Shown piece by piece: positions 9,391 through 58,249 of a stretch of 64,000 bases of DNA. This DNA comes from Emiliania huxleyi CCMP1516 (lineage: Eukaryota). The stretch covers positions 1,535,331 through 1,599,330 of the forward strand of contig NW_005202428.1 in assembly GCF_000372725.1 (NCBI RefSeq). The letters are read 5' to 3'. The notes below the pieces were generated by a model. It had not been told where the DNA came from, made no database searches, and worked only from the letters and a program-made list of their open reading frames with translations. The position numbers and the translations under genes are program-made. The first letter of the stretch is position 1. Every line of letters starts with the position of its first letter.

Positions 9391-12300
9391 ATGAGCCATC
9401 AGCCAGAGCTGGCCATCGAGGACATCGACGTCGACGACGGGGCGGTGGTCTCCGTCGTCGAGGACATCGACCTCGACGACCCGCCAAGCCTGCCGCCGCA
9501 GCCTCAGCCTCCCGCGCCCGCGCCCGCCGCGCCCGCACCCACCGGCGGCCTGGTCGGCCGCGCTGTTCTTCTGAATGGCCTCGTCGCTCGGGCCGACCTG
9601 AACGGCGCCACGGGCTTTGTCCTCTCCTACGACACTGCACGCGGCCGCTACGTCATTCGCGTCGTGAGCTCGGGAGAGCTCGTCAACGTGCGGCCGTCCA
9701 ACGTGTCCCTGCTGGTCGCGCCCAGCGGTGACCTCACGGAGTACGACCCGCGCAAGGCGCCTCGGCGCGCGCAGACGGCGTGGAACTACTACACCTCCAA
9801 GGCGCGCCGCGTGCTCAAGCGCGAACGCCCGCAGGCGGCCGAGGAGGAGCTGCAGGCTCTGCTCAAGGCTTCGTGGGAGCAGCTGCCCGCCGCCGAGAGG
9901 AGCGTGTACGAGGGCAAGGCGGCGGCGGACCGCGAGAGGCACGCGTCGCAGCTGGCCCTACACGCGTCGCACCGCAGCGCCAGCGACCTCACGTTTGGCG
10001 GCCAGCTGCCGCCGCTGCCCGCCGCCGCGCCGTCGCCGCTGGGCGACCTCACCTTCGGCGGCCAGCTGCCTCCGCTGCCCGCCGCTGCTCCGCCGCTCGC
10101 CGCCGGGGCGGTGCATCTGCAGATGCAGGTCGCGCAGCAGCTGGCCGCCGGGAGGGCGTGCATCTCTCAGCTGCACGGCGCCGGCTTCGCCACCCCCGCA
10201 CTCGCCTCGCTCCCGGGACCCAGCGCCGCCTCCTGCGCCGCCCCGGTGGGCAGCCAGCAGCTTCGAGACCTGATGGGCGGCGCGCCGTGCGGGGGCGGGC
10301 AGCAGCTGAGGGACGTGATGGGCGCGGGCGGCGCCTCCCTGCCGCCGCCGCCCGCCCTCCCGCCCCTGCTCGTCAACGGCTTCGTCGGCGGCGGGTGGGG
10401 AGGCGCCGCCACCGCCGCCGCGCCGCCGACGCTGCCGCCGCCGCCGCCGCTGAGCAAGCAGGAGGCGGCGCAGCTGCGCGCGAGGGAGAGGGAGGCGAGG
10501 GAGATGGCGGCGCGCGCGACCAAGTTGGCGGTGCAGCAGCAGCGGCAGCAGGCCAAGGAGGCGGAGCGGCTGCTGCGCGAGCAGGCAGCACTGGAGGGCG
10601 AGGGAGCGAGCGGAGGAGCAGCGCCGCCCAGTGACGGGAGTGTGGGCTCTGGGAGCTAGGCGAAGGCGGCAGAGCGGCTCGCGCGGGACGAGGCGAAGCG
10701 GCAGCTCAAGGAGGAGGTGCGTCGGGCGCCCCGCGCACTCGACCCTCTCAGCTGACCCCCCCCTCCCCCTCCAAACTCACACCCTGCCTCCAACTCGCAC
10801 CCCTCCCTCCCAACTCAAGCACACGCCGCAGCGCTCGCGTCTCCGCTGCCGCCCACCTCTGCCCCCCCCCCCCCCGCCAAGCCCGCACGAGAGGCCCCTC
10901 CTCCCCAGCCCGTCCCAACGTGCCCCGCATTCGGCCGCACGCTTGCGGCCCTCAGACCCGTCTCGGAGCCGCCCCCCCCCCCTCCCTGCCCCCTCCGGCG
11001 CCAGGCGCGGAGGCTCAAGGAGGCGGAGAGGCGGCTGAGGGAGGAGGCGAAGGCGGAGGAGCGCGACGCGAGGGAGGTGACGCGCTGCCTGCTCGACCTG
11101 CTCCGCGTGGTGGAGGCGGGCGCCGCGCGAGAGGCGCCGCTCTCCCTTCCGCACTGGGCCTCGCACTCTGAATCTCGCACTCTGAATGCCGTGCGGCTCT
11201 GGACGGGGAGTCGCGAGGGACTAGCCTGGCCCCTGCCCCACCACCTCGTGTGAGTGGAGAGGTTTCCCTTGCCTCACCTGACCTCAGGCGCGCCTCGTCG
11301 CGGCGGAGACGGTGCGGCTGCAGGCGAGGGCCGACAAGGCGCGGCGGGCTGCGGAGCGCACGGCGGAGCGCGAGGCGCGCGCCGGCGGCGAGGCGGCGGC
11401 GAGGTGACACGTCCACGACACGTCCACGACACGTCCACGACACGCCCGTAGGCGCGCGACGCCGACGAGGCGCGCCGGCTGGAGGAGGCGCGGCGGCGCC
11501 GGAGGGAGAGGGCACCGCTCGTGTATGCCTCCCTCTCGCTGTGCGGCGGCGGCGGCGGGGGTGCGCGGGTGCGGCTTCGGCTCTCGCGGCCGGCGGCGGC
11601 GGACGCGCTGCCGGAGGGGCCTCTGCCCGTTGGTACGGTGGCGTGGCGGCTCTTCGGGGAGTACGACTTCGCCTCCAAGGACGAGAGGTGTGTGTGTGTG
11701 GTTCTCGAGCCCAGATGCGGAGCACACGAGGAACCCCCCCAGCCCGCACTTGGGGATGCCTCGCTAGGTTCTCGAGCCGCCACCGGTGGGCGCTGATGCT
11801 GCGCGCGGCCGAGGTCCACCTGCAGGCAGAGGTTGGCGACCGCTTCGTCGTGCGCTCGTCGTGCGGCTGCGGCGGCTGGGCGAGGGTGCCTTGGCTGGTG
11901 GTGAGCGACCCGGGCGAGTCGACGCAGCACGGCCTGTACTTGCAGTACCTCTTCGCGGCCGACATGTCTGCCGTCTACCTCTCGCTCGGCCAGGGGACCA
12001 CCCGGCTGCGCACCGCTTTCGGGGGCAAGGCGAGGCCGGAAGAGAGAGGGGGGGGAGGGGGGAGGGAGGGGGAGCGCAGCGCCCGCCAGGGAAGCCGCCG
12101 CCCACGTCTGGGAGTCCCACCCGGACTCTTGGACAAGTCCCGGACATGTCGCGGACATGTCCTCGAAGGTGGCGGCCGAGCACTTGCAGCGCATCGGTGC
12201 GGACGTGCGCGAGCGGTGCCGCGCGCTGCTGCCGCCCGGCGCCGGCTTTGAGCTCGACGAGCCCATCGATTTGTGCGACAAGGTGGCTTCGGCGCAATCT

Positions 12301-14927
12301 CGGCGCATCTCGGCGCATCTCGGCGCATCTCGGCTCATCTCGACCCCGTGCGACAAGGGCGCCCTCGGGCGAAACTACGCGCAGGGCTCCCGTTGGCAAG
12401 GCTGGACGCGTTCCTGGAACCTTCTCGGAGCCTTCATGGAGCCTTCCTATAGGCTCCATCCTGGCGCGGCGGTACGGCGCGGAGGCACCGCTTCCGCCCG
12501 AGGCAGACATGCTGCAGCACTTGCGCGCGCTGCTCGGCGCCGCCCATCTCCAGCGCGCCGGTCCCCGCCCTCCTGCCGCCGTCCACCCCTCTCGCTGCGG
12601 GTAGGTGTTTACTCTGCCGTGCTGGCGGACGAGGGGTACCAGAGGGATGTGGTGCGGCCGCTCGACGCAGCTCTGGCCTCGCACTACGGCGCCAAGTTGC
12701 GCGCGGTCGACGACGCGGTCGCCGACGAGCGGCTCGGCGGATTGGAGCGGGAGGAGGTGAGCTGCGAGTCGGACTCGGCCGACGAGGGGGAGGGGGCAGG
12801 GGAGGGCGAGGGCGAGGAGGTTGGGGAGGGCGGGCAGGACGGGGAGGTTGCGGAGGTTGGGGAGGCACCCCCGCCTCTCGCGCCCCCGCCCGCCGCGCCC
12901 CCGCCCGTCGCACCCCCGTTTGTCGCGCCTGCCGAGGTCTCGGCCTCTTGCCAAGCTGAGGGGGCGGGCCCCGCGCAGCAGCTCGCGCCGCCGGCAGAGG
13001 CGGCGCCTCCGCCTCTGCCGCAGAAGGCAGCACAGGCGGCGCAGGAGGCGGCGGCGCAGGAGGCGGCGGCGCAGGAGGCGGCGGCGCAGGAGGCGGCGGC
13101 GCAGGAGGCGATGTGCGACGACACCGGCGCCGACGCAGCGGGCGCAACGGGCAATCCTCCCGCCTTCGCGCCGCCGTCATGCGAAGGCGGCGCGGGCGTG
13201 AGTCCAGCGTTTGCCCACGCGCCAGCTCCGCCCCGCGACACCGAGGCGGGTCCGTCGGTCGCGGGGCCTCTCCCGGCCGGCGGCGGCGGCGGCGGCGTCG
13301 CGCCCGCCCCCGGCGGCGCGGAGCTGGAAGCGGACAACTCTTGGGTGAGGCGGCCGAGGAAGGCGGGTCCGAAGCGCGCGCCGTGGGAGCGGGCGCAAGC
13401 CGCGGCGCCGTTGGGCGCGCCGAACGGGCCGTGGGAGTCGGTGTCACTGCGCTTGAGCGGTGCGGGCTTCGCGGAGGCGTTGGCGAGGGCGAGCGAGCCT
13501 AGATGCCGGACCACAGCTCCGCGTATTCCAACCCAGCCCTCGAGAGGATGGTAGTCAGCCGTATCCAGCGGCGCTCACTGTATGCGTGGCCCGTGTATTC
13601 GCGCGATCCGCTCACACTACACTGCACGAGACCGTCCTTACGCCCCGACTCTAACTTGCTCATGACGTAGGCGCTCGACCCGCCGAGCGGCGAGGGCGTG
13701 AGCGGCGAGGCGCTGGTCGGCAAGAGCGTCGACGTGTGGTGGCCGATGGACGTGGCGTGGTACTCTGCGCGCGTGCTCGCCTACTCGGGCGAGGCGACCG
13801 ACAAGCACCAGCTGCTCTACACCGACGGCCAGCGGGAGACTCTCAAGCTCGCAAGGCACCGCTGGCGGCTCAGCGCGGCGCAGCCGCCCTCGCAGCCTCC
13901 GGCGCAGACTGGCCCGGAAGCTGCGCCCCCCCCCCCCCCTCGAGGAGCGGCCGCCGCCTCCGCGAAGCGCAAGCGCGCGGCGGAGCGCGAGGAGGAGGAG
14001 GACGCGGACATGCTTGAGAAGCTGCGCGCGCGGAGCCGCGCTCGCCGGCGCTCGGCTAGCCTTCCCGGCGGCGGCGCTGGCGGCAGTGGCGGCAACGGCG
14101 AGAGCGCACCAGGCGGTCTAGCTTCCGCGCCAGCGCCAGCGGCGGCGTCAGCGGCGGCGTCCGAGGCAGAGGACGACGAGGTGGAGGTGGAGGTGGACGC
14201 GGCGGCGGCGGAGGGCGGGGCGGCGGCGGAGGGCGGGGCGGCGGCAAGCATCGACGTTCTGCCGCCGCCGCCCGAGGCTGCGTTTGCTCCGACCTCGACG
14301 GCCGAGGGCGAGCTGGTTGAGGGCGGCGGGGAGGAGGGGGAGGGGGAAGAGGACCTGCTGTCTGAGTTGCCCGCGGCTGAGCTGCAGCGCATTCTCTCGT
14401 GTGAGGCTTCGGCGGACGCCGAGAGCGGCGGTGGCGGAGCTGACGGCGCGACTGACGGCGCGACTGACGGCGGCGGCGGCGGGGGGGGCAGCAGCAGCGA
14501 GGGTGGCGCCGAGGGCGACGGCGGCGGCGAGAGCGGGGGTGAGTTTGTGAGGGAGGTGGAGGGCGTGGGCAGGCTGCTGCTCTCGTCGCGCAACCCGACG
14601 GGCTACCAGGGAGTCTACGCCCCAAAGGCGCGGGCCGGCACCGCCAAGCCCTTTGTCGCGATGCTCACGGCCTCTGGTGTGCAGCGCCACATCGGCTGGT
14701 TCCGCACCGCCGTCGAGGCGGCCGCGTGCTACACACGCGTGCGCCACGCGCTCGATGCGCGGTCTCAAAAGGCGAGCCGCAGCCAGCCGAGCGCCCGCCA
14801 GATGCCGCCCGCCGCCCCGCCCGCCGCGAGCCCGCCTCCTGGCTCCGAGGCGGGGCTGTTTGGCCCGCCCGCCGCTGCGGCGCCGAGCGACGAGCCGCCG
14901 CTCCCAATGGAGGTTGAGGAGCTGTGA
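9391..14927 (+). CDS. Multi-exon chromatin/DNA-binding protein: SH3-like + HMG box + coiled coil + McrB-N/DUF3578-like + Tudor-like + AP2/ERF-like domains
   Basis: SH3-like GRAVLLNGLVARADLNGATG...GRYVIRV (~9550-9715); HMG box PRRAQTAWNYY...ASWEQLPAAERSVYEGKAAADRERH (~9750-9945); DUF3578-like VRSSCGCGGWARVPW...GLYLQYLFAADMSAVYLSLGQGTT (11768-12640, spliced); Tudor-like LVGKSVDVWWPMDVAWYSARV...HQLLYTDG (13710-13870); AP2-like TGYQGVY...RHIGWFRTAVEAAACY (14580-14745). The parts can be joined by plausible GT/GC-AG introns, so a single gene is inferred. Confidence 0.75.
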
Positions 14928-16845
14928 TGGCGGGGGGGGGGGTGGCATCTTAGATGATCTAATGATCATCACCCCGTCTTTTGAGCACTCTTTTTGTCTC
15001 TTTCTCGGACGCTCATCGCGGCCATGGCGCATGGCCCATGGGTCGGGAGGGTGGACGGGCTCCAACCTCTGGGCCGGCGCGGGGCCCCCCGGAGGCACCG
15101 TGCACCGCGCCGCACTGCGGAAACGGGGCTGCTCCGGCTCCGCTAGTGTCAGCTAGCACCAACTTCCCGATTAAGTACGGTTAAGTAGAGGGCAGATTTG
15201 GAAAGATCTCGAGGAGTACATACAGATAGACCCTCCAACCATCAGAAAACTCCGACCTGATCGGTCGTACTGACCGCCGACAGATCACTCCAGACAGCAG
15301 ACAGGCCGACTTCTGCACGCGGCCGGCCGGGCGAGAGGCTTGACACGATCCGACCCTGCGACCCTGACGCTGCTGCTCTAGCTATCAGCCATGCACTGCT
15401 GACTGCTGCCACAATGTGCGACCTGTGCTGGCCCACTTGGCGGCCTTCCCGGTCAGTGGTGAGGCGCAGTTCAGAGCTGTCGATGGCGCGATGCCGCACT
15501 GGTCCCACATTGGTGACACGAGACCACCAAGTTTGCCGGTCCAAGAGAGAGGCACCGGCGCTGTCCTGAGAAGGTGCGTGGTCCCTCTTGACTGCCCATG
15601 CGCGCGAGGCTGTGTAGGCATAGCCTCGAGAGTGCCAGCAGCCAATCCGAGGTGACGCGCATTGCGCCAGAAGCGTGCACACGATGGAAGGACACCTTCC
15701 TACTGGCCGTACGATCAGGTCGTCACTGAATGCTTGATACTAAGGCCGCGAGCTATGCAGGTGATCAATTGTGCATCATGGCACGGTCAGCTGCGCCGAC
15801 AGGCTGTCGCAAGGCGTGATAGCATGGCCGCAAGTACGCCGAATTCCCATGAAAACAAGTAAAAAATCACAAAAAAGAAAAACAATCCAAAAAATCGGCG
15901 CCTGCGGCGGGCCATGGGACCCCATCTCCCCCCCGCATGGACACCCTCTGGGGCCCCCGCGCCGGCCCAGAGGCTCCAACGCTGCTTCAAGCAAAGAAGG
16001 GGAGGGAGAGAGCGAGCACACGCGGCGAGCGCAGGAGGCGAGCGTGCACGTCGCCTGTGCGGCGTCTTGTTCACTCCCCTTTGAGCTACCTTTGTGCCCC
16101 CTTAGGGGCACCCCTCCTGCGCTGCGCGTATGGTCACCCCTCCCTTCCGCCCTGTTGTTTTGGATGCCCCGCTCCGAGAAAGCATCTCTAGCATGTCTCG
16201 CGCCCCCCAATGAACATACCAGTGAGGGAGGGCGAGACGATCGAGGGGTCCCGTACCACGCGGAATCGACCCTATCCAGTGCTCAAGTGCTCAAGTGTCT
16301 CGCGCAGGCGCGCAGCTGCGAGAAAAGACCTTTCGCAGATCCACGCGGCCCGCGGCGCCGGCGGTTCTCGGCGCGCCCGGGAGACGCGAGAGAACGGTGG
16401 GTCGGTGGGAGAAGAGATGTGCATGTGGGCATGCCATGTTGCCCCATGTTACTCTACCACACTGGAGTGACAGTAGTATCATCCGCCGGTATTCTGATAC
16501 GTCTCATGTGCATGTGGGCAGGGCCTTCTCGTCACGAAATATGAAGAATGCACCGACACCACGATCCACGTGACGAGGGCCCCATCTGACAGCCCTCCTG
16601 ACAGAAGCCTCAGAGGCCAGACGCTCGCGTGTCGCGATAGGTTGCAACCCCTATGGCTATGTCCCCTGCATGCCTTACGAATGCGTAGTTTACCCGTTGT
16701 CGGGCCGATGTGTGTAGTCGACACACGCACAAGAGAGCCGACGCAGAGTGCGCGCCGTCACAGTCGGCAACGGGAGCACGCTCGTCTCGTCTCGCCAAGG
16801 AAGAGCACAGGCCAAACAATGCCCAGCGAACCATGTGCCACGCTC

Positions 16846-17676: not shown

Positions 17677-18830
17677 AATAAATAAATAAATACAACGGAC
17701 ATCCCAAGCTAGGGCTGGGTCGAGGACAGACACGTCCCCACCTTTGCAGGATTTTGCAAAAGCGAGGGGGGAGGGCGCATCGCCGCGCGGAGAGGGCTCT
17801 CTCGCATAGGATACGCACTCGGCGGCACGAGGGCAAGGCTGGGCGTCCTATGTTTGTGCTCCCCCCCGGACCCCTCGCTCTCGGGCACTAACCATCTGAC
17901 CACTCATCGACGGGGCTTGGCGAGCGGCCGCGCTGCGGGGCAGGGCTGGTGAGAATGGGCTCTGGCCACTCGCCCGTGCGGTTGTAACCCCGCATCTGTC
18001 GGACAGAGGCCTCGACCGCCCCTCGCGGCAAGCTCTCGAGCACCTCGAGCAGCTCGCCCGCCGCCATCGCCGCCTCGAACTGCTCCCTCATGCCGAGCGC
18101 GCCGCATACCCTGCGGACCGCCTCCTGCTGCACCTCGTCCGGCGTATCGGTTTCATAGCCGGACGAGTCAGCGGAGGCGGCCCGCTTGGCGGGCGGAGAG
18201 TCGGGCGACGGCGAGCGCGACTGGCGCGAGGGCCCGCTGCCGCGCGCGGACAGCGCGTTCTTGTCAACGAGACGGGGTCCAGCATCGGCACGGCCCCTGG
18301 CACCGCGGCCCTTGCCGCGCTGCTGCTGCCCACGCTTCCTGCCCGGGTTAGGGACAGTGAAGGAGCAGCCGCGCACTCCGCCGCCGCTGGGCGGCGGCGG
18401 CACGCGCGCGGCGGCGGCCGGGCCCGCAGGCGCGGCGGGCTGGCCACCCGCGGTGGCACCCTGCGGCTGCGATGCGGCTGCGGCGGCGTACGTCTTGGGC
18501 GCCGGCTCCGCGGCTGGCGGCGCGGCGGCAGGGGCGGGCCGCGCCGCAGGGCTCGCGCTCGCAGGCGGCTCCGTGGCCTGCGCCTGCCGCTCGTGGCGCA
18601 CGGCGCGCTCGAGCTGCGAGTGCGGGTGCAGCTGTACGATGACGTCGCCGCTCTGCGTCGCGGTGAAGGAGACCGAGTACGGCGCTTCGCCGTCGTTCTT
18701 CTTCTCCGCGTAGACGAGCGCGTAGTCGCACACCTGTCGTTGGTGGTCAGTGAAGATGGTCTCTGTGCAGCGCTCGGCGGAGCCGACGCGAGAGAAGTGC
18801 CGCCTGAACGCCATGCGTTCAGGCGCTGTT
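17677..18830 (-). mobile_element. Dispersed non-LTR-type retroelement copy with an unknown ORF (17888-18835) and a (TATT)n tail
   Basis: The 3' ~420 bp is closely similar to 53697-54150 on the opposite strand. Both copies end at ...GATGTCCGTT plus a TATT-rich tail and differ in their 5' extent. Confidence 0.7.
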
Positions 18831-18894
18831 AACAACGCCTCGACTCGCAGAATGGCGCAAATTCTTTTTCTCTCTTCATTTCAGACATGTGTGT

Positions 18895-20940
18895 ATGTCC
18901 GCCGCGCCAGCCCGCACCGGCGCCAGACGCCGCACACCGCCTCCTCCGTCGACGAAGCGCGGCGGCGACGTCCCTGCAAGCATTCGGGAGGCCGCCACGG
19001 ATGGCCAAGCGGGAGCGGTGCTGGCGTGGACCGACGGCGGCGGTAGGGTCGACGAGACGTTCGAGTACACCTTTTTGGACGGCTCTCGTGAGAGCGAAAT
19101 GACGCTGCTGATGATCGCGATGGCCAATGGCCACGCGGAGCTGGCCGAGGCGCTTCTGCGGCGCGGCTCGGACGTCTCGTTGCAGAAGAGCGACGGTGGC
19201 ACCGCGCTGTGCCTTGCCGCCGCCAACGGCCGCGAGCTGGCTTTGCGGCACGGCGCGGAGATCAATCAGAGAAGCACGACCGGCGTCACTGCGCTGATGG
19301 CCGCCGCCTACGAAGGCCACGAGCGGGTGGTCGACACGCTGATCCGGCACGGCGCGGAGATCAACCTGCAGGCCAACGACGGCGACACCGCTCTGATGTT
19401 CGCCGCCCTCGGCAACCGTCCCGCCGTGGTGCTCCGCTTGCTGCGGGCGGGCGCAGACATGACGCTCCGCTCTAGCGGCAAGACGGCGCTGCAGATTGCC
19501 AAGGAGGAGGGCCACGCCGAGTGCGTTGAGGCTTTCAGGACGTATCTCGTGGAGGTAATGGCGGCGCGCAGCAAGGCGCCATCATCGGTCGAGGCGGGCG
19601 GCGCGGGGACGAGCGGCGCACCCGCAGGCGAGGCGGAGGCGGGCGCCAGTGCCGCGGCCTCTTCTTCGAGCGGCGAGGGCGCAAAGGCCGCGCCGGGCAG
19701 CGAGGCGGTGCCAAAGGAGGTCGTGCTTGCGGCTGGGCGAGGAGACGAGCCGCCGGTGCTGGCGTGGCTCGACCGCGGCGGGTGGGTCGACGCGGCGTTC
19801 GAGTTCCTCTTTGGTTGCGGGACTCATGCGAGCGGCGTGACGCTCCTGCTGCTCGCAATGATGAATGGTCACGAGGGGCTGGCCGAGGCGCTTCTGCGGC
19901 GCGGTGCGGATGTCTCATTGCACACCAGCAACGGTGGCACCGCGCTCATGACCGCCGCCGTGAACGGCCGCGAGAAGCTGGTCGAGCTGGCACTGCGGCA
20001 CGGCGCGGAGATCAATCAGAGAAGCTGCACGACCGGCTGCACCGCGCTGATGGACGCCGCCTACAAAGGCCACGAGCGGGTTGTCGACACGCTGATCCGG
20101 CACGGCGCGGAGATCAACCTGCAGACCAGCAACGGCGACACCGCGCTGATTTGGGCCGCTTTCAACGGCCACCCCGCCGCCCTGCTCTGCTTGCTGCGGG
20201 CGGGCGCAGATATGACGCTGTGCACTAATAGCGGCAATACCGCGCTGCAGTGGGCCAAGGTGAAGGGCCACGCCGAGTGCGCGCGCGCCCTCGAGGAGCA
20301 CGCGGCGGCCAAGGCGGCGGCCGAGAAGGCGGCGAAGGAGGCGGCGTGGGCTGCGGGGGCGGCGGAGAGGGAGGCGCAGAGGGCGGCGGAGGAGAAGGAG
20401 GCGGCGCGGCACGCCGACGAGCTGCTGGCGGAGGTCGAGGCTGAGAAGCGCGCCAAGGGCAAGAAGGGCAAGAAGAAGAAGAAGGGCGGAGAGGCGAGCG
20501 CGGCTGGGCCGTCGCAGGAGGCGGAGGAGGGTGCCGAGGCGCCGTCGGAGGCAGCTGAGGCCGCAAAGAAGGCCGAGGAGGAGAGAATGATCAGGCTTCT
20601 CGAGAAGTGTCACGAGGAGAGGATCCGGTTCGGCATCACGGCGGCGAGCCAGGCAGCGGCGTCGGCAGCGGTGGCCAAGGCGGTGCGCTTGGACGCTGAG
20701 GCGGACGAGGCGGAGGAGGAGGCAGAGGCGGACGAGGAGGCGGCGGCGGTGGCAGAGGTGGCTCGGGCGGCGGCGGCGCAGGCGCAGGCGGACGCCAGGG
20801 CAGCGCTGGAGAAGGCCAACGCGGCGCTCGCGGACGCGACGGCCGCTGCAGAGGCGAGCGCTGCTGTTGCGGCTGCTTCGAAGGCCAAGGCGACCGCTGC
20901 CAGGATGGCCGCGGATGCAGCCGAGCAGCAGCGCTCGTGA
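18895..20940 (+). CDS. Ankyrin-repeat protein with an internally duplicated ankyrin block and an Ala/Glu/Lys-rich coiled-coil tail
   Basis: Repeated TALMAAAYEGHERVVDTLIRHGAEINLQ and GDTALxxAA motifs; two similar ~190-aa blocks; single ORF. Confidence 0.9.
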   Translation: MSAAPARTGARRRTPPPPSTKRGGDVPASIREAATDGQAGAVLAWTDGGGRVDETFEYTFLDGSRESEMTLLMIAMANGHAELAEALLRRGSDVSLQKSDGGTALCLAAANGRELALRHGAEINQRSTTGVTALMAAAYEGHERVVDTLIRHGAEINLQANDGDTALMFAALGNRPAVVLRLLRAGADMTLRSSGKTALQIAKEEGHAECVEAFRTYLVEVMAARSKAPSSVEAGGAGTSGAPAGEAEAGASAAASSSSGEGAKAAPGSEAVPKEVVLAAGRGDEPPVLAWLDRGGWVDAAFEFLFGCGTHASGVTLLLLAMMNGHEGLAEALLRRGADVSLHTSNGGTALMTAAVNGREKLVELALRHGAEINQRSCTTGCTALMDAAYKGHERVVDTLIRHGAEINLQTSNGDTALIWAAFNGHPAALLCLLRAGADMTLCTNSGNTALQWAKVKGHAECARALEEHAAAKAAAEKAAKEAAWAAGAAEREAQRAAEEKEAARHADELLAEVEAEKRAKGKKGKKKKKGGEASAAGPSQEAEEGAEAPSEAAEAAKKAEEERMIRLLEKCHEERIRFGITAASQAAASAAVAKAVRLDAEADEAEEEAEADEEAAAVAEVARAAAAQAQADARAALEKANAALADATAAAEASAAVAAASKAKATAARMAADAAEQQRS

Positions 20941-22940: not shown

Positions 22941-23173
22941 GTAGACATGACACTGTACACCACGCACGTACACAGGTCCTCACTCAGCTTCCCGTCCCGG
23001 GGTTCCACCGCCCGCATTCCCAGGGCTCCGGTTCTCCCTGATTCGCTCTTTTATTCGCCAGCCGAGCGTCGCCTGACGGCCGCTGTAGCCGTTTCGCTAC
23101 GGTCTTTTTCTTTGGCTCGCCCGCGGCCGCCTCTCGGAGCGCCCTCCTCGAGCGCCGCGCGCGCCGTGGAAAC

Positions 23174-26100
23174 ATGCCGCGCTTCGTTCCCCAGGGCACG
23201 GCGCCGCTCACAACCATGGTTGAAGACGACGAGGAGGACCAGGAGAGCGAGACGGCCTCCGACTCGGACGACCTCCTCGGGACGCACATCTCGGATGATG
23301 ACGAGCCCCGGCGGCCGGGAGACCGCCGCCTGCGCGCTGCCGACCCCGAGAAGCAGGCCAAGTTTGAGAAGGAGCACGAGCAGGAGGTGCATACCGTGGC
23401 TCCCGACGGCGGCTACATGGGCAGGAACTTCCACGGCGCCTTCACCGGCGGCTGGTCGGCGGGCTACTTCAACAGCGTGGGGAGCAAGGAGGGCTGGGCG
23501 CCGTCGGAGTGGAAGTCGAGCCGGGGCGCGCGGACGGAGGGCGTGGCGCAGCGCGTCGAGGACTTCATGGACGACGAGGACCTGGCCGGGCACGCGGCGG
23601 AGAGGCGCGTCGTCACGCGAGGCGGCTTCAGCGGCGCTGCTCCGGCCGCCGCGGGCGCAGCAGCACGGCGCGCGGCTCCTGCGGCGGCGGCGGCGGCGGC
23701 GGCGGGTCCGTCGCGGGCGGGCGGCAGCGTTGCCGACTTGGGCGAGCGCATCGGCGAGCTGCTCCACCGCTCGGGCGAGGCTGAGTCGGTCGGGAGGCGG
23801 ATGCTGCGTGCGATGGGCTGGCGCGACGGCTTCGGTGTCGGTCCTCGCACGGCGGCCCCGGCGGCCGGGGCGAAGAGGAAGGTGTACGGGTGCAGCCCCG
23901 GCCCGTCCGCCTCGGCGAGCGCCGGCGGCGGGAGCGCCGCCGCCGCCGCCGCAGAGGCGGACGACCTCGACGCGGTGTTGGGCGCCGCGCCGGGCGTTAC
24001 GCTCGCTCCTCGAGCAGTCGCTACGGTGGCCTTCACGCCAAAGAACGACCTCTGCGGTGTGGGGTACGATGCGATGCGAGGCGCGCCCGAGTTTGCCGCT
24101 GCCGCCGCCGCCGCCGCCCCCGGCGCCGGCCGCTACGCGCGCGCGCTCGCCCCAGCCAAGGCGCTGCGCAGCGCGCTGCCGTCCGGGTACGACGACGACG
24201 ACGACGGCCGTTTCGACTCGCAGCCGGGCGACGACATGGCGCTGTACGACTCTGTGCTGGACGGGCCCGGCGACGAGGCGGAGGAGGGCGGGAGCTCCTG
24301 GCGCGAGCTGCGTCGGCTCGAGGGCGGCGGCCGGCGCAAGCCCGCCTCGGTCAAGCCCGCCATTGGAAAGTACTCGCTGCGTGGGTTTGTGCCGGCGGAA
24401 CGGCCGCCCCCGCGTGAGGTGAGGACACACAGCCGAGATGTGGCCGAGATGTGGCCGAGATATAGCCTCCCCGCGTGAGGCGAGATGTTCGCCGAGATAC
24501 GCCGCCGAGATGTGATCGAGCACGCACCGGCCGGTGGAGCCGGCATCGGTGGAGCCGGCATCGGTGGAGCCGGCATCGGTGGAGCCGCGCCTCAGCCGTC
24601 CCCGTGCCGCCTGCCAGGCGTGGTACGAGCCGCCTCGCGTGCCGCGCGAGTTTGACGAGCGGCACGTCTTCCCGCCGCCGCCGCCGCCGCCCTCGGACTT
24701 GCCGCCCGCCCTCGTCGAGGCCCTCCAACGGCAAGCTTTGCCGCCAAAAGCGCCGTCGCGCGAGGGCGCGCCGCCGCCGCCGCCGCCGTCGGCGCCGCAC
24801 CCGCCGCCGCCGCCGCACCCACCCCCAGGGGTGCCTTCCGCACCGCCGGGGGTGCCGCCGCCGCCGCCGCCGCCGCCGAGCGCAGACTTGAGCGCCGTCT
24901 GGGGCCTCGTCGGCAAGCGGGACATGCTTCGTCTCTGGCAGCACCTCCAGCACCTCCGCGCACCGCCGCCGCCGCCGCCGCCACCGCAGCGTGAGCAGCG
25001 GAGACAGCCGCCGCCGCCGCCGCCGCCGCCACGGATGGACCTGGCCGCAGCGGGCGGTGCGGCGGCCGCCGGCGCCGCCGCCGCCGCCGCTCATTTTGCG
25101 AGGCAAGGGCCGCCGCCGCCGCCGGCCGGAGGAGCGCCGCCGCCTCCTCCGCCGCATGGGGGAGGAATGGGCGGGCCAGCAGCCCCCGCCGGCGGCTGGC
25201 AGCCACGCGAGTGCTTGCAGCCCCTCCGCCCCCTTTCCCCCGCTCAGCAGGCCGTGCTTCTGTCTTCTAGGCAGCTCGCCGACGACTGCAAGCCCTACGC
25301 AGCCGACCCGCCCAAGCAGGCGCGTTTCGAAGCTTTCCTGCAGTCGAGCCGCGAGGGCCAGGGGTGGGCAGAGGTTGGCACGGCCCCGCCCGCCGTGAGA
25401 CGGAAGAGGTGGGTCGTCTCGAGCCCAGCCGCGCCGCGCTGTAGGCGGAGGAGGGGCGAGAGTTTGCAAAGGTGGCGGCTTTCTTCTCGCGCCCCAAGCA
25501 CTCCGTCATCTCGGAGCGCTTCACCTCGTCGTCGATGCACATCTCGATGCCGGCCGGGATGAGCAAGGGGGGCGGGGCGAAGGCCGCCGCGCCCGCTGCG
25601 CCAGCTGTGCCCACCGCGCCGCCGCCGGAGCCGGTGCGGAGCGAGGCGGCGCAGGCAGCTGCCGCTGGGATGTTTGGGAAGCTCACACGCAAGACGGAGC
25701 CGTGGGCCCCTGAGCCGCTGCTGTGCAAGCGGCTCAACGTGCCTGTCCCTGCTGTCGCAGAGCCGGCGCGGCAGGAGGGGCGCGGGGGCGGTGGCGTCGG
25801 CAAGCGGAGTTGGGAGTCGACGATGACATTCAACGATGCGTTGCTGCCCCTCCCCCAGCTCGATGCCCCGACTGCGACTGGCACTCGCGGCGCACGGCAA
25901 GCGCCGCCACCGCCGCCGCCGCCGCCGCCGCAAGCGCAGCACGGGCAGGCTCGTGCCGCAGCGGACGCGCTGCTCGCTAACCTCAGCGGCGCCTCCTCCT
26001 CGGATGGCACTACGAAAGGAACTTTGTCGGCTGGCGCTGCAGCGCCCGCTCCCAGCCCCGCCGCCGCCGCCGCGTCGGCTGCGATGGAGGAGGATGCCGA

Positions 26101-27033: not shown

Positions 27034-29802
27034 TCAAACTGCCACCGTTGGCGGGTTCGCCGGCTCAAGCTCAGAATCAGACGGCCGCTTGTCCTGTACC
27101 ATCGCCTGCAACCTGTGGTAGCGGTTGCGAATGGCGTGGTCCGTGCGGCCAGGCAGCCGTTGCGCAATCTGGAACCACTTGTGCCCAACCTCCGCAACTG
27201 AGTTGACAATGATCGCATCCTCCGCGCGAGTCCAAGAGACCCTCGCCTCCTTGAAAACGCCGTCAGCCCCGTCCACCGCCGAGGACTTGGGGTGCGCCGG
27301 CTTGCGCTGTGCCCCGCCCCCCTCCACTGCGCCAGACAGCGCCATCCCACCATCGCCCACCTCCCACGCCTCGCCCTTGAGCCGGTTCCACCGGTTGCGC
27401 ACCGCGTCGTCCGAGCGGCCCGGCAGCATCTGGGCAATCTTGCGCCAGCGCAGGCCGTGAGTGGCGACGCCGGTTCGGATGACATCATCCTCCTCAGCCG
27501 TCCACTCCTTGCGCTCCGGACCGTTGCGTTGGCCGCTCTTGCCGCGCCCGGACGAGCCTGCTGGCTTCGCTGGCATCGGCTGCTGCGGAGTCTGCCAGTG
27601 GCCAAGCGGCACCGCCTGTGCGACCACGCGATAGCCCCCGCCAGTGGCCGGGACAGCGGTCTGCACGGCGTGGCCCAGAGAAGTGGCGGCGCCAGCGAGC
27701 GGCGGCGCGGTGTACGACGAACCGGAAAAGTCGTACCCGGTCGATGCCGGCGGGTACGAGATCGCAGAGGCGCCTGGGTACGCCTCGGGGCAGCCCAACA
27801 CAGCTGCATTGGCGAACGACATACCGCCCTCAGCCGCTTGGTAGCCGCCGTTCCCGTCCGCGATCGCCCAATTGCCGCACCCCGCTGCCGCTGCGTGGTC
27901 TCCGGCGCCGTCGTAAGCCTGCGGCGCGTAGCCGTGGGGCACGTCCGCATACTCCACGTCTCCGTACGCGTAGCCATCTCGGCCTGCATAGCCATAGTAG
28001 CCCTCGTCGCCGCCCGCCGAGCCCACCGGAAACGTAATCGGAACCGGGGTGCCGCTGGCGTCCATGTAGTAGCCCGCGCCCGCGTAGCTGCCTCCGCCTT
28101 CGTGGTACGTGGTGCCGCCGTAGTAGCCTGACGCGCCGCAGCCGCTGTCGTACGCCGAAACGGCGCCGTAGCCATGGCACGGGGCGGCCCCCGGCGGCGC
28201 GGCATAGCCGTGCTCAATGTTGTGCGCATCGCCCTGCACCAAGTTCCCGACAGCGCTCTCGTCGGTGTGCAGAGCGGCCTGGCGAAAGTGGGGCGGCTGC
28301 AGCGGTTGCACGCTCTCATCGAGGGGCCGGCTGGCGGCCTGCTCCATGATGTAGAACAGCTCGCCAGAGCCATACTGCTGCACGCCGTTGCTGTTCACGC
28401 AAGCACCGGCCTGGAACGCGGAAGACGTTGGAGCCTCCTCGCGCAGCACCCCGAAAACGCCGGTGGATCCCGACACCCCCGCCGCCGGTAGCTGCAGCGA
28501 CGAAGAGATTTGCGAGGGAAGGTCGCCGAGGGAGTCCTCGCGACCGAGGGCATTCTCGTCTGCCGGTCCGCCAGGATGCGAGCTCGCCGCCCCCGGAGCG
28601 TTGTCGTGGACGCCGGCGTCGCTGACGCAATCGACCTACGGGAGACGAAGTGCTGGCTGTCGCTCCCCCCCCCCCCCCCCCCTCCTCCTCTGGCTCGGTG
28701 AGGCCCCACCGAGGCAACGGCGATGGCGAGGCCCATCTCGGCGTCTGCGTCGGCGTCTGCATCGGAGGACGAGGTGGCATCTCCACCGGCAAGCGGGCTT
28801 GGGGGCGATGGCCGGCTCGGCTGGGGCGGCGAGGAGAACATGGCGCCAACAAAGGACATGTCCACCTAGGCAGCAGCGGCCGTTTTGAATCGTGGTGGCA
28901 GCCAGCCCAGGACAGGTACAGGTGAGCTTGCGCACCTCGGGTGTCGATGTCAACTTCCCTGGGAAAGAGCTGTCCGCCGCCTCTCCATCCGCCGCACGAT
29001 CAGGCCGTGGAAGCGGTGTGGGGCTGGCGGCCGGGGCGAGCTGTGGCCCACCGTCAGACCGGCTGCGCCGGTGCCCTCCGCCACCACCGCCGATTGCGCC
29101 AAAGCTGCTGCAAGCGTCGTCCCCGCCGCCGCCTGCCTCGCCGCTGCTCCCCGCGCCGCCCGCGCCACCGCAGAGAGCCTGCACGTCTCCCACCGTGAGC
29201 GTGTTGACGGAGCCTGAAGGGGTGCGCTGCCGTCGAATGCGCGGCCACGAGCCGGACGATGAGCCGTGCATCAGATCGCTCCCTACAGAAGAGCGAGGGC
29301 TTTCATCAAGACACGCGCAATGGCAATGGCGCGCGCGCTGCAGCAGGGCGCCGTCGGCGAGGGGCGCTGCTGCTGGCGGCGCGCCGAGCGCACCGTCCAC
29401 CTGCCACTCCCGTTGCCAACCCTCCTTGGGCGCACCCCGCGGCGTGGGCAGCCCCGAGCCTGTCCCAGAGGCCAAACCGGAGGAGCTCGAAGACGCCGCG
29501 TACAGCAGCCCTCCTCCTGCTGCGGCGCCCTCGCCCTCGTACACGGCGCAGGGCGGGTCGCGCGTCAGCGCAATGGTCAGACCGGCGTCTGCTGCCGCGG
29601 CGACCATCTGCGCCGAGCTGTAGTCGCCGGATGCCGACCCCGCCGCCTGCGCCGGCGCCGCCCCTCCCGCCTGATGCTCGCATGTGAAGCTGAGCGCGGC
29701 CTGCATCTCCCAAACGGAGGGGGCCTCCCGCTTGAGGCCGAGACCACGCCGCCCGCCATCCTCCGCCCCAGCAGCCAGCGCCGGCTGAGCCTGCGTCGCC
29801 AT
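27034..29802 (-). CDS. MYB transcription factor with two separated C-terminal MYB repeats, multi-exon
   Basis: RKEWTAEEDDVIRTGVATHGLRWRKIAQMLPGRSDDAVRNRWNRL and RVSWTRAEDAIIVNSVAEVGHKWFQIAQRLPGRTDHAIRNRYHRL. Upstream exons from MATQAQP (29802) are joined by inference. Confidence 0.85.
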
Positions 29803-43451: not shown

Positions 43452-44092
43452 TCCCCTCGACCACGCCGCCGACCCGTCGACAAGCACACGCGGACTGCCA
43501 TCGAGAAGAAGGAGAAGGAGCGCGGCGCATCCGGAGCCCGCGGGCGCGGCGTGGGCGGGCGCGGGCGCGGGCGGGCGCGCGGGAACCCCGCCAGCGGAGG
43601 CGACACAATGCCTCTGGCGGCTCTGCAGGCGGCGCGCGGCGCGCCCCTCGCCGGTCTCCCGCACGCTCCTGAGGGCCGAGAGGGCCGAGAGGCGGGGTTG
43701 GTGACCCGGGGGCATGGGCGGTGCGGCCCGCGCCGCGTGCGGGCGCGTGGCAGCCCGTGAGTGCCGAGATCGGGTCTGTGCTTCGACGTAGCATGGGCCC
43801 CCGGAGGCCCATCTACAGCAGCGGCGAAGTGAGCGTGTTTGTGGTGTTGGTGTGACGTCTGAGCTTGGATCTGTGACTAAAGCCGCTTACCACTGATGGA
43901 TCCCCACCCGAATAACACACAGTGAGCGCCCCAGCACTTCACTACGCCCTCCGCGCGAAATCGCTAGTGGTGCTTTGTGGCAGCACATTGTGCTTTGTGG
44001 CAGCACGGGTGCGGTGCCCGCGAGACCGAGAAGAATTCTCGCTGGGCTGGCCGACCATCCATCGCCCCGCCTTCGCCGCCGTGCCCAACACA

Positions 44093-45286
44093 ATGCGAAC
44101 ACTTCGCTCCGTGAAGGTGCACGCGCCGGCGGAGCTCAAGGCTGCCCTCTCGGACGTGCGCTCCGACGCGTCTCCCACCGACTGGGCTCTCTGCGCGCTC
44201 GAGCCCGACGGCAGCTCCCTGCGCCTGGTGGGCAAGGGCGAGGGCGGCGCGGAGGCGTTGGCTGCGCAGCTGTCTGACGACGCGGTCTTCTACGGCCTGG
44301 TCCGCCGGACGGACCAGATCGACAAGTCGACCACGATCAAGTTTGTGTTCCTCTCCTTCATCGGCTCCGCCCTCTCGACGATGAAGCGCGCCAAGGTGTC
44401 GACCGTGAAAGGCGCCGTCTCAGAGGTCTTCGCGCCCTTCCACGCGGAGCTGATGTCGGCGACCGAGCCGTCCGAGGTGACTTCAGCCACTGTGGACGCG
44501 CTCGTCCGCGAACTCGGAGGCGGCGCCGTGAGCGACGGACGGGCGGGCGCGGCCGCAAGCAAGAGCGGCGCGGCCGCAGAAGTTGCCACTGCCATCGGCG
44601 GGCGGCACAACGACGTCGGCGCCCACAAGACCAAGGCGGCGGTCATGGCTCCGCCGCAGCCGGCGGGGACGGCGGTGTCGCCCGCGGTGGCGGCAGCGAT
44701 CGCGGCCGTGCGCAAGGGCAGCGGCGGAGCGACGTGGGTGCTGCTGGGGTACGAGGCTTCGGGCACCCAGCTCAAGGTTGAGAGCACGGGCACGGACGGC
44801 GGCGAGTCGCTGCCCGCGGCCTTCGACCCGGCGAGCGCGCAGTGGGCGCTGCTGCGCACGGAGCACGAGATGGGGTCCGCCGAGGACGTGGTCCGGCCAA
44901 AGGTGAGAGACGCCGGAGGGAGGGAGGGAGGAGCGGTGAAACGGGTCGGGGGACGCATCCCTTGGTGCGCCAAAGGTGACGCGCTTCACGCTGCTCTCGT
45001 GGGTCGGAGAGCAGACGCCCCCGCTCCGCCGCGCCAAGCTCACGACGCTGCGCGGCGAGGCGCAGGAGGCGAGACGACGCCCAAGCCTTTCGCGCGCCTT
45101 CCTCTTCGCCCGCCACGCTCCCTTCCCTCCGCGCCTCTGTCTCACACGCCGCCCGGTGTCTGCTCCGCCCCCTCTGGGTGGCAGGTGCTCTCGCCCTTCA
45201 ACGAGGAGAAGCTCAACCTGAGCTCAGAGGCGGAGGCGGCCAGCGCGCTGCGGGAAGCGGCGGCGGCGGCCGCCGCCGCCTGCTAG
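44093..45286 (+). CDS. Coactosin-like actin-binding protein with two ADF-H domains, two introns
   Basis: AALSDVRSDASPTDWAL...GEGGAEAL...YGLVR...KFVFLSFIG...KRAKVS...FAPFHAEL; second domain ATWVLLGYE...|VTRFTLLSWVGEQTPPLRRAKL. Confidence 0.85.
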   Translation: MRTLRSVKVHAPAELKAALSDVRSDASPTDWALCALEPDGSSLRLVGKGEGGAEALAAQLSDDAVFYGLVRRTDQIDKSTTIKFVFLSFIGSALSTMKRAKVSTVKGAVSEVFAPFHAELMSATEPSEVTSATVDALVRELGGGAVSDGRAGAAASKSGAAAEVATAIGGRHNDVGAHKTKAAVMAPPQPAGTAVSPAVAAAIAAVRKGSGGATWVLLGYEASGTQLKVESTGTDGGESLPAAFDPASAQWALLRTEHEMGSAEDVVRPKVRDAGGREGGAVKRVGGRIPWCAKGDALHAALVGRRADAPAPPRQAHDAARRGAGGETTPKPFARLPLRPPRSLPSAPLSHTPPGVCSAPSGWQVLSPFNEEKLNLSSEAEAASALREAAAAAAAAC

Positions 45287-57000: not shown

Positions 57001-57457
57001 GAGCTGAGTCCTGAGAGGGGAGAGCGGTGCCTTGGGGGGCACACGTGGTCATCGTATTCGTAGAGAGAGAATGTAGGCAGATACTATAAGTGCATAGAGT
57101 AGTAGTATAATAGTATGCACATGGGTAAAGTGGGTTGAGGCGGGCTTGTACTGTAGGGTGGTCAGTAGTTTTGTGCCACCTTCTTGCCTCTTCGCAAGCG
57201 TTTGTTTTATTGACGAGCAAGTGACACTCTCGGACCCCTGGCGCCTGGGTTCCGGCTGTTTTTTTGGGGTGGGTAGAGTACACCCCCCGGATTGTAGGGG
57301 GGTAGGGGGTTGGGGGGTGGCCGCCCACAAGAGACGTCCGTTACATGCCCAAATGAGGGGTAGCAGACCGCGATCCGGCGCACCCTACCCTACCCCCGAA
57401 CAGCCGGAACCCTGCTCACATTTCACGATGCAAAGAGGAATTCCAGCACGTTGATAT

Positions 57458-58249
57458 ATGGCCGACACCGGCACCGGCAGCAGCGGAGACAGTGGCAGCA
57501 GTACGAAGACCCGGCCGATCGTATTCCTGGACGTGGATGGCGTGCTCTGCTGCAAACACGAGACAAGGCTGGAGGCCGCGCCGTGTGCAGAGCTGCAAAG
57601 AATCGCCGAGTCCACACGTGCCGCAGTTGTGCTGTCCACCGACTGGCGGCGTGACACGTCACTCAGTAGCCGCATCAAACGATGTCTGCACGAGAGAAGA
57701 GTCGACTGCATTGGCGCGACACCGCAGCTCAGCGGCTCCATGGACCGCGTTTCGCGCGTCCGCCCGAAGGAGATCCTCAGCTGGCTGTCGGAGCACGGAT
57801 TGGGAGGCCTTCATGGCAGCACGAATTGGGTGGCGATCGACGACCGTGACCTGGTATCAGAAGACGGCGGCGAGGCACTGCGGGGCCGCTTCGTCCAGAC
57901 AGCCTTTGCGAGTGGGTTGACCCGCGAGCTGGCAGACCGAGCTATCAAAATGCTTCTGCACGGCCCACAGCCCTGCCCGGAGGAGGAGAGGCCACCCAAC
58001 GTGCGAACGTTGCAGGATCTGCTCGCCGAGGCCGGCGTGGACACGGCGGTGATGGATGTGTTGCAGAGCTGCGCCACAACCAGCTCGCTACCAGCGCTGG
58101 TGAAGGCTGTTGAGAGCTCAGGGCGTGTGAAATTCCTTGAGCTACTCAAGGCAAGCGGGATATCACGCCCTGCGACGCGCCAGGCCATTGCGAATGCGAT
58201 CGGCAGGTGCAAACGAGAGGATCGACTGTGCCCTGAACTAAAAATATGA
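57458..58249 (+). CDS. HAD-superfamily (HAD_SAK_2, Swiss-Army-Knife-type) domain protein with a C-terminal helical SAM-like module
   Basis: IVFLDVDGVL, VVLSTDWR, IGATP, RPKEILSWL, WVAIDD, FVQT...GLT; C-terminal RVKFLELLKASGISRPATRQAIANAI. Confidence 0.85.
   Translation: MADTGTGSSGDSGSSTKTRPIVFLDVDGVLCCKHETRLEAAPCAELQRIAESTRAAVVLSTDWRRDTSLSSRIKRCLHERRVDCIGATPQLSGSMDRVSRVRPKEILSWLSEHGLGGLHGSTNWVAIDDRDLVSEDGGEALRGRFVQTAFASGLTRELADRAIKMLLHGPQPCPEEERPPNVRTLQDLLAEAGVDTAVMDVLQSCATTSSLPALVKAVESSGRVKFLELLKASGISRPATRQAIANAIGRCKREDRLCPELKI

Follow-up and report, generated by a model that had tools for sequence, protein, structure and literature searches.

The window analyzed here, a stretch of 64,000 nucleotides (nt) of Emiliania huxleyi CCMP1516 to which all coordinates refer, carries an intron-containing gene in which a McrB-N domain, known from the E. 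coli McrBC restriction enzyme, is embedded among predicted chromatin domains. We consider it rather probable that this domain was acquired from bacteria long ago and has been retained in the chromatin of haptophytes, where it is predicted to read methylated cytosine by base flipping. The window is eukaryotic DNA with a GC fraction of 0.59-0.75, and the gene and its central domain are laid out as follows.

9391..14927, plus strand: whole gene, 11 exons, 1443 amino acids (aa); single open frame, GT/GC-AG introns, transcript contig offsets
9391-10584, 10660-10716, 11005-11133, 11288-11374, 11452-11687, plus strand: exons 1-5
11768-12029, 12169-12282, 12358-12385, 12453-12536, 12605-13488, 13671-14927, plus strand: exons 6-11
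11647..12624, plus strand: McrB-N domain (PF12102, DUF3578, 'ADAM'), aa ~555-737, exons 5-10; Pfam profile, alignments, orthologue fold

As the original prediction had proposed for these exons, exon 11768-12029 alone matched the Pfam family MrcB_N (PF12102, formerly DUF3578) with an E value of 2.6e-21 (76.5 bits, cut-off 25), and the orthologues reached 98-117 bits with most of the model covered. Profile comparison with E. coli McrB-N gave a probability of 96.7%, and a family profile that included prokaryote-type rows (alignment A6) matched the PDB entry 3SSC, which is E. coli McrB-N on methylated DNA, at E 2.7e-7. No McrB match was obtained in PDB with alignments A1, A3 and A4 as profiles, because the first two were swamped by the coiled coil that precedes the domain and A4 held eukaryote-type rows only. 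The fold was predicted, with 79 relatives, for the corresponding region of the orthologue P0003, which shares 55% identity with the domain of the window. The resulting model (predicted local distance difference test [pLDDT], 90.8) found 3SSC as its best structural match among 48,161 chains (Z 10.3, root mean square deviation [rmsd] 3.0, 135 aligned residues), followed by two proteins of unknown function (Z 8.8 and 7.9). A Foldseek search with the same model placed McrB-N in all 12 top rows among the matches listed, in agreement with the structural resemblance that had been anticipated.

The pocket was compared with that of E. coli McrB-N, in which, according to the available text of PMC3424535, S38 and W49 clamp phosphates, W49, L68, Y117 and Y64 form the pocket walls, and Y64 and L68 act as methyl sensors. 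The same source describes Y41 as an intercalating residue that fills the gap and is not conserved among homologues. In the window protein, S599, W610, Y625 and L629 correspond to S38, W49, Y64 and L68, and Y700 probably corresponds to Y117. The position of Y41 is occupied by Cys. The base-flipping pocket that had been predicted is thus far retained in its clamp and sensors, probably in Y117, and not in the finger. As seen across the family, the five positions S38, W49, Y64, L68 and Y117 keep the E. coli residue in 27, 26, 23, 27 and 25 of the 27 eukaryote-type rows and in 110, 114, 108, 112 and 112 of the 115 prokaryote-type rows, respectively.

Relatives were collected by a word search, which gave 11 longer proteins of 58-100% identity among 116 candidates, by a second such search (9 among 2815), and by a profile search of 1.84 billion representatives, which returned 2885 matches; trees were drawn from the best 150 of these 2885. 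For the larger tree, 170 sequences were reduced to 144 by removing 25 that were fragmentary or nearly duplicated and one that lacked the domain. In it, the 27 eukaryote-type rows make up one side of a branch (Shimodaira-Hasegawa-like approximate likelihood ratio test [SH-aLRT] 99, stem 0.87), apart from the 115 prokaryote-type rows, and the window's domain groups with P0003, P0004 and P0007 (support 96). A 55-row tree that includes E. coli shows the same split, with 22 of its rows on one side (support 98). A match to the McrB GTPase was found in 58 of the 115 prokaryote-type rows versus none of the 27 eukaryote-type rows, and EVE or PUA-like readers are frequent among the prokaryote-type members (72 of 150 scanned sequences have one). 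The direction from bacteria to eukaryotes is inferred because the prokaryotic spread is far wider. Altogether, the sequences suggest that the domain was likely acquired once from bacteria, out of a modification-dependent restriction system and into a haptophyte ancestor, and the horizontal origin put forward by the original prediction is supported by this single, separate branch. Pattern scans with the clade motif found no relative in 21 viral-contig stretches or 98 prokaryote-genome stretches, a result that excludes close relatives only. In an Atlas search with the domain of P0038, the matches listed included McrB-N clusters of bacteria (0.90) and none of eukaryotes, which does not prove that eukaryotic clusters are absent.

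A second McrB-N clade was also observed, formed by P0054, P0144 and P0168 (support 100), whose members have no GTPase and contain basic stretches resembling nuclear localization signals. It may join the first clade (support 57 in the 55-row tree) and is possibly a second eukaryotic acquisition. The C-terminal segment of P0054 had no Pfam match; we take it to resemble MBD.

Beyond McrB-N, the gene encodes the following domains, all on the plus strand.

9559..9714, plus strand: small N-terminal domain, aa 57-108; matches P0003, P0004 and P0017 (E 1e-6 to 9e-9)
9760..9951, plus strand: HMG box, aa 124-187; PF00505, E 9.6e-9, 36 bits against a cut-off of 25.4
10459..11514, plus strand: charged predicted coiled coil, exons 1-5, aa ~357-510; composition, alignment
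11515..11586, plus strand: two-strand hairpin, aa 511-534, immediately N-terminal of McrB-N; alignment across family members
13692..13868, plus strand: Tudor domain of the RDM15 type, aa 1033-1091; sequence match to PDB 7DE9, E 1.3e-12
14541..14771, plus strand: likely AP2 DNA-binding domain, aa 1316-1392; weak profile matches, predicted fold, kept in orthologues

The HMG box had been expected in this gene, and so had a Tudor-like and an AP2 domain, for which, as for the short exons, the Pfam scan gave no match. The Tudor domain was identified through its match to 7DE9: the cage residues W1049, Y1056 and Y1075 are identical to W616, Y623 and Y641 of RDM15, D643 and E647 are kept, and Q654 is replaced by H. 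The RDM15 Tudor of Arabidopsis is reported to bind H3K4me1 (PMC8184781, as far as its available text goes). For the AP2 segment, a single-sequence PDB search found no match, and a six-row profile had 1GCC and 2GCC as its top matches at a weak E of 0.013. Its predicted model (pLDDT 81) appears to have the three-strand sheet and helix of the AP2 fold, with 2GCC (Z 6.7, rmsd 2.3, 51 aligned) and 7WQ5 (Z 6.3) as best matches, where a Z below 8 may reflect a common arrangement. The AP2 identity is likely rather than certain. The small N-terminal domain, presumably SH3-like, had no match in Pfam or in a single-sequence PDB search. The coiled-coil region contains an internal helix motif that matches the orthologues, and the strands of the hairpin were placed at E9-18 and E21-29 in the orthologue model with a pLDDT of 55-76. 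The window protein has no enzyme domain, no chromodomains and no SNF2 ATPase. By eye, a short alternating-hydrophobic motif ending in LSG was seen in the disordered region of the orthologues and at window 13444-13467 (aa ~1011-1018). This motif, which gave no sequence match at an E cut-off of 0.01, is a possible pairing partner of the hairpin.

The exon structure is drawn from transcript contigs, which give neither strand nor expression level. Seventeen sequencing runs matched the gene, 14 of them with more than half of the sampled words (4 studies; 3 recorded as RNA; 8 compared). Introns are absent from the transcript contigs, and the contig offsets (X2 record 7, X5 record 18, X1 record 2, X2 record 8) match the 11-exon model with single-base precision at 18 of 18 points. 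Of the 10 introns, 3 are GT-AG and 7 GC-AG, introns of Emiliania being typically rich in GC-AG. The start codon of the model, the first ATG in the exon-1 frame, is putative. X2 record 7, 2124 nt long, starts at 9930 in exon 1, the exon of the HMG box, spans the exons of McrB-N and ends at 13064 in exon 10, and X2 record 8 runs from 13081 to 14941, covering the end of exon 10 and the exon of the Tudor and AP2 domains. The break between them falls in a repeat.

13030..13110, plus strand: 15-bp tandem repeat (QEAAA units) within exon 10; sequence, contig break point

In run X7, short contigs tile over this repeat, with a depth of 192 upstream and 173 downstream. A single mRNA for the whole gene is well supported by these data, as had been predicted for the HMG, McrB-N, Tudor and AP2 parts. 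The exon coordinates of the original prediction were placed correctly except for one junction: an exon end at ~12538 joined to a start at 12605 shifts the frame, and the true end of exon 12453-12536 is 12536, followed by the GC-AG intron 12537-12604. At base 12606, the window has T and another sample of the same gene has C, a silent difference. Lower-depth contigs of X4 and X7 were seen to retain intron 10 (window 13462-13699) and may represent pre-mRNA or DNA; if retained in mature mRNA, this intron would end the frame at the stop codon 13552-13554, ahead of the Tudor and AP2 domains. We also observed that the 5' ends of introns 11375-11451, 12283-12357, 12386-12452 and 12537-12604 are similar to the starts of the following exons, and that several introns of the gene contain short tandem repeats.

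Three orthologues have the small N-terminal domain, coiled coil, hairpin, McrB-N and AP2 in the same order as the window protein, and other relatives combine McrB-N with further chromatin domains. SNF2, Helicase_C and McrB-N lie within one frame in P0008, in P0038 of Prymnesium parvum and in L002:2-7312; in L003, L005 and L006 they occupy consecutive same-strand frames together with PHD, CXXC, chromo and Agenet domains (frames were scanned from 7 of the 13 metagenome loci). P0038 and L002 have both chromodomains and the SNF2 ATPase. L002:2-7312, L003, L005, L006/L007, P0008 and P0038 are CHD-type remodellers that end in McrB-N, often with Agenet domains and some with CXXC fingers, and CHD-type members also have a coiled-coil-like region ahead of McrB-N. 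McrB-N probably resided first in a CHD-type remodeller, and the window gene is likely a duplicate of the coiled-coil/hairpin/McrB-N tail of such a remodeller. In P0030, a bromodomain stands beside McrB-N, and the 2261-aa frame L001:55-6837 contains Myb, chromo, CW, McrB-N, AP2-like repeats and SET. The McrB-N of this frame is nearly identical to the L002 domain, a sign of recent domain shuffling. A paralogue group, P0169-P0172, matches the window's Tudor weakly (E 0.003-0.008), suggesting that McrB-N and RDM15-type Tudor domains may have paired repeatedly. On the evidence of these arrangements, McrB-N behaves as a mobile chromatin module.

Several observations weigh against a conserved reader of methylated cytosine or narrow what can be said of it. 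The E. coli domain also flips unmethylated cytosine (PMC3424535, in the text available), and it is only ~14% identical to the window's domain, on an outlying branch of 6.1 changes per column; as it is the only characterized relative, and a distant one, its specificity may not carry over. The fold model belongs to the orthologue P0003 rather than to the window's protein, and of two alignments, one paired Y700 with Y117 at low confidence and the other left Y117 unplaced. On the DNA face, 25 of the 27 eukaryote-type rows have C in place of Y41, 26 have Q in place of V66, and 26 have G or A in place of S120; of the 115 prokaryote-type rows, 100 keep V66 and 81 keep S120. In the Tudor domain, D645 of RDM15, which helps to select monomethyl-lysine, is Q, the other selecting aspartate, D643, being kept. 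Both trees were quick, without bootstrap, unrooted and drawn from biased top matches, for which reason they support one origin and name no donor. Only one of the 27 eukaryote-type rows has a species name (P0038, Prymnesium parvum), the others being typed by architecture and sequence. The full gene was never covered by one single contig. Finally, HMG and Tudor were not found in the three orthologues. An HMG-Tudor layout as the defining feature of the family was therefore rejected: the HMG-Tudor chromatin protein of the original prediction exists in the window gene and is not general, the recurring home of McrB-N being the CHD-type remodeller, and comparison of the sequences indicates that HMG and Tudor are local additions.

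The surroundings of the gene were searched for partners of a restriction system. The E. coli McrB GTPase matched none of the 677 window frames of at least 60 aa, the spliced protein is also without a GTPase, and no match to the McrC nuclease gene was found within the 64-kb window, in line with the expectation that no AAA+ GTPase or nuclease would be present. A McrBC defence locus in the window was rejected. A Pfam scan of the 104 long frames outside the locus gave ankyrin, Myb, cofilin and metabolic genes, among them the following neighbours.

3-842 and 18808-20937: two ankyrin proteins
23042-24475: DUF1604
27037-28635: Myb protein
43916-45283: cofilin-domain protein (two repeats)
57455-58246: HAD_SAK_2

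The main rival to a methylated-cytosine reader keeps base flipping and changes the target, to unmethylated C, 5-hydroxymethylcytosine (5hmC), N4-methylcytosine (4mC), some other pyrimidine bearing a modification or damage, or RNA. This is rather unlikely, and it draws on the clade-wide changes just described, in which finger residues Y41 and N43 become C and G, and pocket-edge residues V66 and S120 become Q and G/A. In E. coli McrB-N, S120 holds a water that can be replaced by the hydroxyl of 5hmC or an N4-methyl group, and a substitute for Y41 may alter specificity, as stated in the available text of PMC3424535. PDB includes McrB-N complexes with 4mC, 5hmC and 5-formylcytosine (5fC). Some CHD-type members moreover contain CXXC fingers, which bind unmethylated CG. 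However, of the methyl sensors, Y64 is retained in 23 of the 27 rows and L68 in all 27, and 5-methylcytosine (5mC) is abundant in G. huxleyi, where the signal of N6-methyladenine (6mA) is scarce (10.1101/2024.05.26.595999, available part). It is less probable still that McrB-N has lost DNA reading and now serves as a structural or protein-binding module working with the coiled coil and hairpin. The three elements do co-occur in aligned members, and divergent members have lost pocket residues (P0038, for example, has C at the Y64 position); yet the strongest conservation lies at the E. coli phosphate-clamp and pocket positions (S, W, Y, L), which a pure scaffold would not need.

It appears very improbable that the domain retains a defence role, singling out modified DNA of foreign origin (from giant viruses, for instance) to be silenced. 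The ancestral role was restriction of modified foreign DNA (PMC3424535, PMC11090510), and giant viruses are reported to infect haptophytes, according to the parts of the sources at hand. Nevertheless, the partner domains found are ordinary chromatin modules throughout, with neither nuclease nor effector fused, and host DNA is likely so heavily methylated that 5mC would not mark foreign DNA; no support was obtained for the viral-DNA sensing suggested by the original prediction. The lack of a single spanning contig could be taken to mean that the sequence is a bacterial contaminant or a recent insertion without function, or that separate neighbouring genes were mistaken for a single one; this explanation is largely refuted and exceedingly improbable. 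Five introns interrupt the McrB-N domain and are removed in transcript contigs; the GC content of the exons is 71-82%, that of the McrB-N exons being the same as in the rest of the gene; the neighbours (cofilin, Myb and ankyrin proteins) are of eukaryote type; and the three orthologues share the order from the N-terminal domain through AP2. Contamination was rejected on these grounds.

Compared with E. coli K-12 McrB-N (3SSC), part of the McrBC type IV restriction enzyme, the window's domain has the profile, the fold and most pocket residues in common. It differs in its internal position among chromatin domains, the C in place of Y at the finger and its low identity, and the gene is an intron-split eukaryotic one that lacks the AAA+ GTPase, with no McrC in the window. 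The SRA readers of 5mC in UHRF1 and SUVH5 combine a base-flipping reader with histone-related domains, as proposed here; in the available texts, the shared mechanism is noted together with a fold that differs from McrB-N (PMC3424535), and SRA is common to bacterial restriction enzymes as well (PMC4259335). The RAMA domain and the bdelloid N4CMT are likewise bacterial restriction-modification modules fused to chromatin domains after transfer (PMC4738411, PMC8885841, in part); RAMA is predicted to read 6mA, N4CMT is a writer, and neither has the McrB-N fold. Arabidopsis RDM15 (7DE9), an H3K4me1 reader in RNA-directed DNA methylation, shares the Tudor cage, D643 and E647 with the window protein; the window's domain differs by the changes at D645 and Q654, and outside the Tudor domain the two proteins show no relation to the extent that they were compared. 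With CHD-family SNF2 remodellers, the McrB-N relatives share chromo, SNF2, Helicase_C and a CHD1-type helix-turn-helix domain, and they add a C-terminal McrB-N; the window protein, in contrast, is without the ATPase. We know of no described CHD protein with a C-terminal McrB-N.

The literature searched, by titles and abstract openings, contained no eukaryotic McrB-N, DUF3578 or PF12102 protein, subscription papers, supplements and older chromatin-domain surveys being outside its scope; the novelty claimed for the architecture agrees with this. Databases already tag such proteins automatically. In the accessible portions of the sources, the McrBC census that names the domain ADAM left out eukaryotes (PMC11090510), a review of eukaryotic adenine methylation refers to McrB only in relation to the RAMA domain (PMC4738411), DUF3578 is used for staphylococcal McrB only (PMC10030836), and eukaryotic 5mC readers are given as SRA, MBD and Kaiso, without McrB-N (PMC8885841). 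Recruitment of restriction-system parts to chromatin is of a known kind, with SRA, RAMA and N4CMT as examples (same source). Overall, the McrB-N fold in a chromatin-reader role appears to be new.

In the parts consulted of the published descriptions, G. huxleyi has ~18% of CG and ~9% of CHG methylated, at higher levels in expressed gene bodies, and is without histone H1 (10.1101/2024.05.26.595999), and its methylation, which is periodic and restricted to linkers, is ascribed to DNMT5, citing Huff and Zilberman 2014 (PMC9246332, PMC9998398). No peak of CG periodicity above controls was seen in the 64-kb window, which is too short for such a signal. On the reading of McrB-N as a methylated-cytosine reader, the domain would bind the alga's own 5mC (CG or CHG), flipping the methylated base out of the DNA into its pocket. 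The window protein, having no enzyme domain, may act as an adaptor that contacts methylated DNA through McrB-N, bent or linker DNA through the HMG box, a sequence motif through AP2, and methyl-lysine, e.g., H3K4me1, through Tudor, with the coiled coil joining partners. Within the CHD-type remodeller, the coiled-coil/hairpin/McrB-N module would let DNA methylation direct the sliding of nucleosomes. A broader proposal is tentative and on the doubtful side: that haptophytes built a bacterial restriction sensor into their CHD remodeller and into adaptors like the window protein, predicted to read the dense linker CG methylation of DNMT5 such that a methylation-guided motor sets nucleosome spacing, the sensor perhaps having been acquired twice (P0054/P0144).

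E. coli McrB-N is already used for enrichment of methylated DNA (PMC4699840, available part), and a reader with a new context preference could serve as a further tool of this sort. Should the proposed role hold, McrB-N would join SRA, MBD and zinc fingers as an additional type of 5mC reader in eukaryotes, one with an origin in bacterial defence. It is also a candidate for an open question, the relation of periodic linker methylation to nucleosome position in algae such as Emiliania, a methylation whose function one review, in the part available, gives as 'Genome compaction?'. A CHD motor joined to a 5mC reader would be a direct candidate for coupling linker methylation to nucleosome position.

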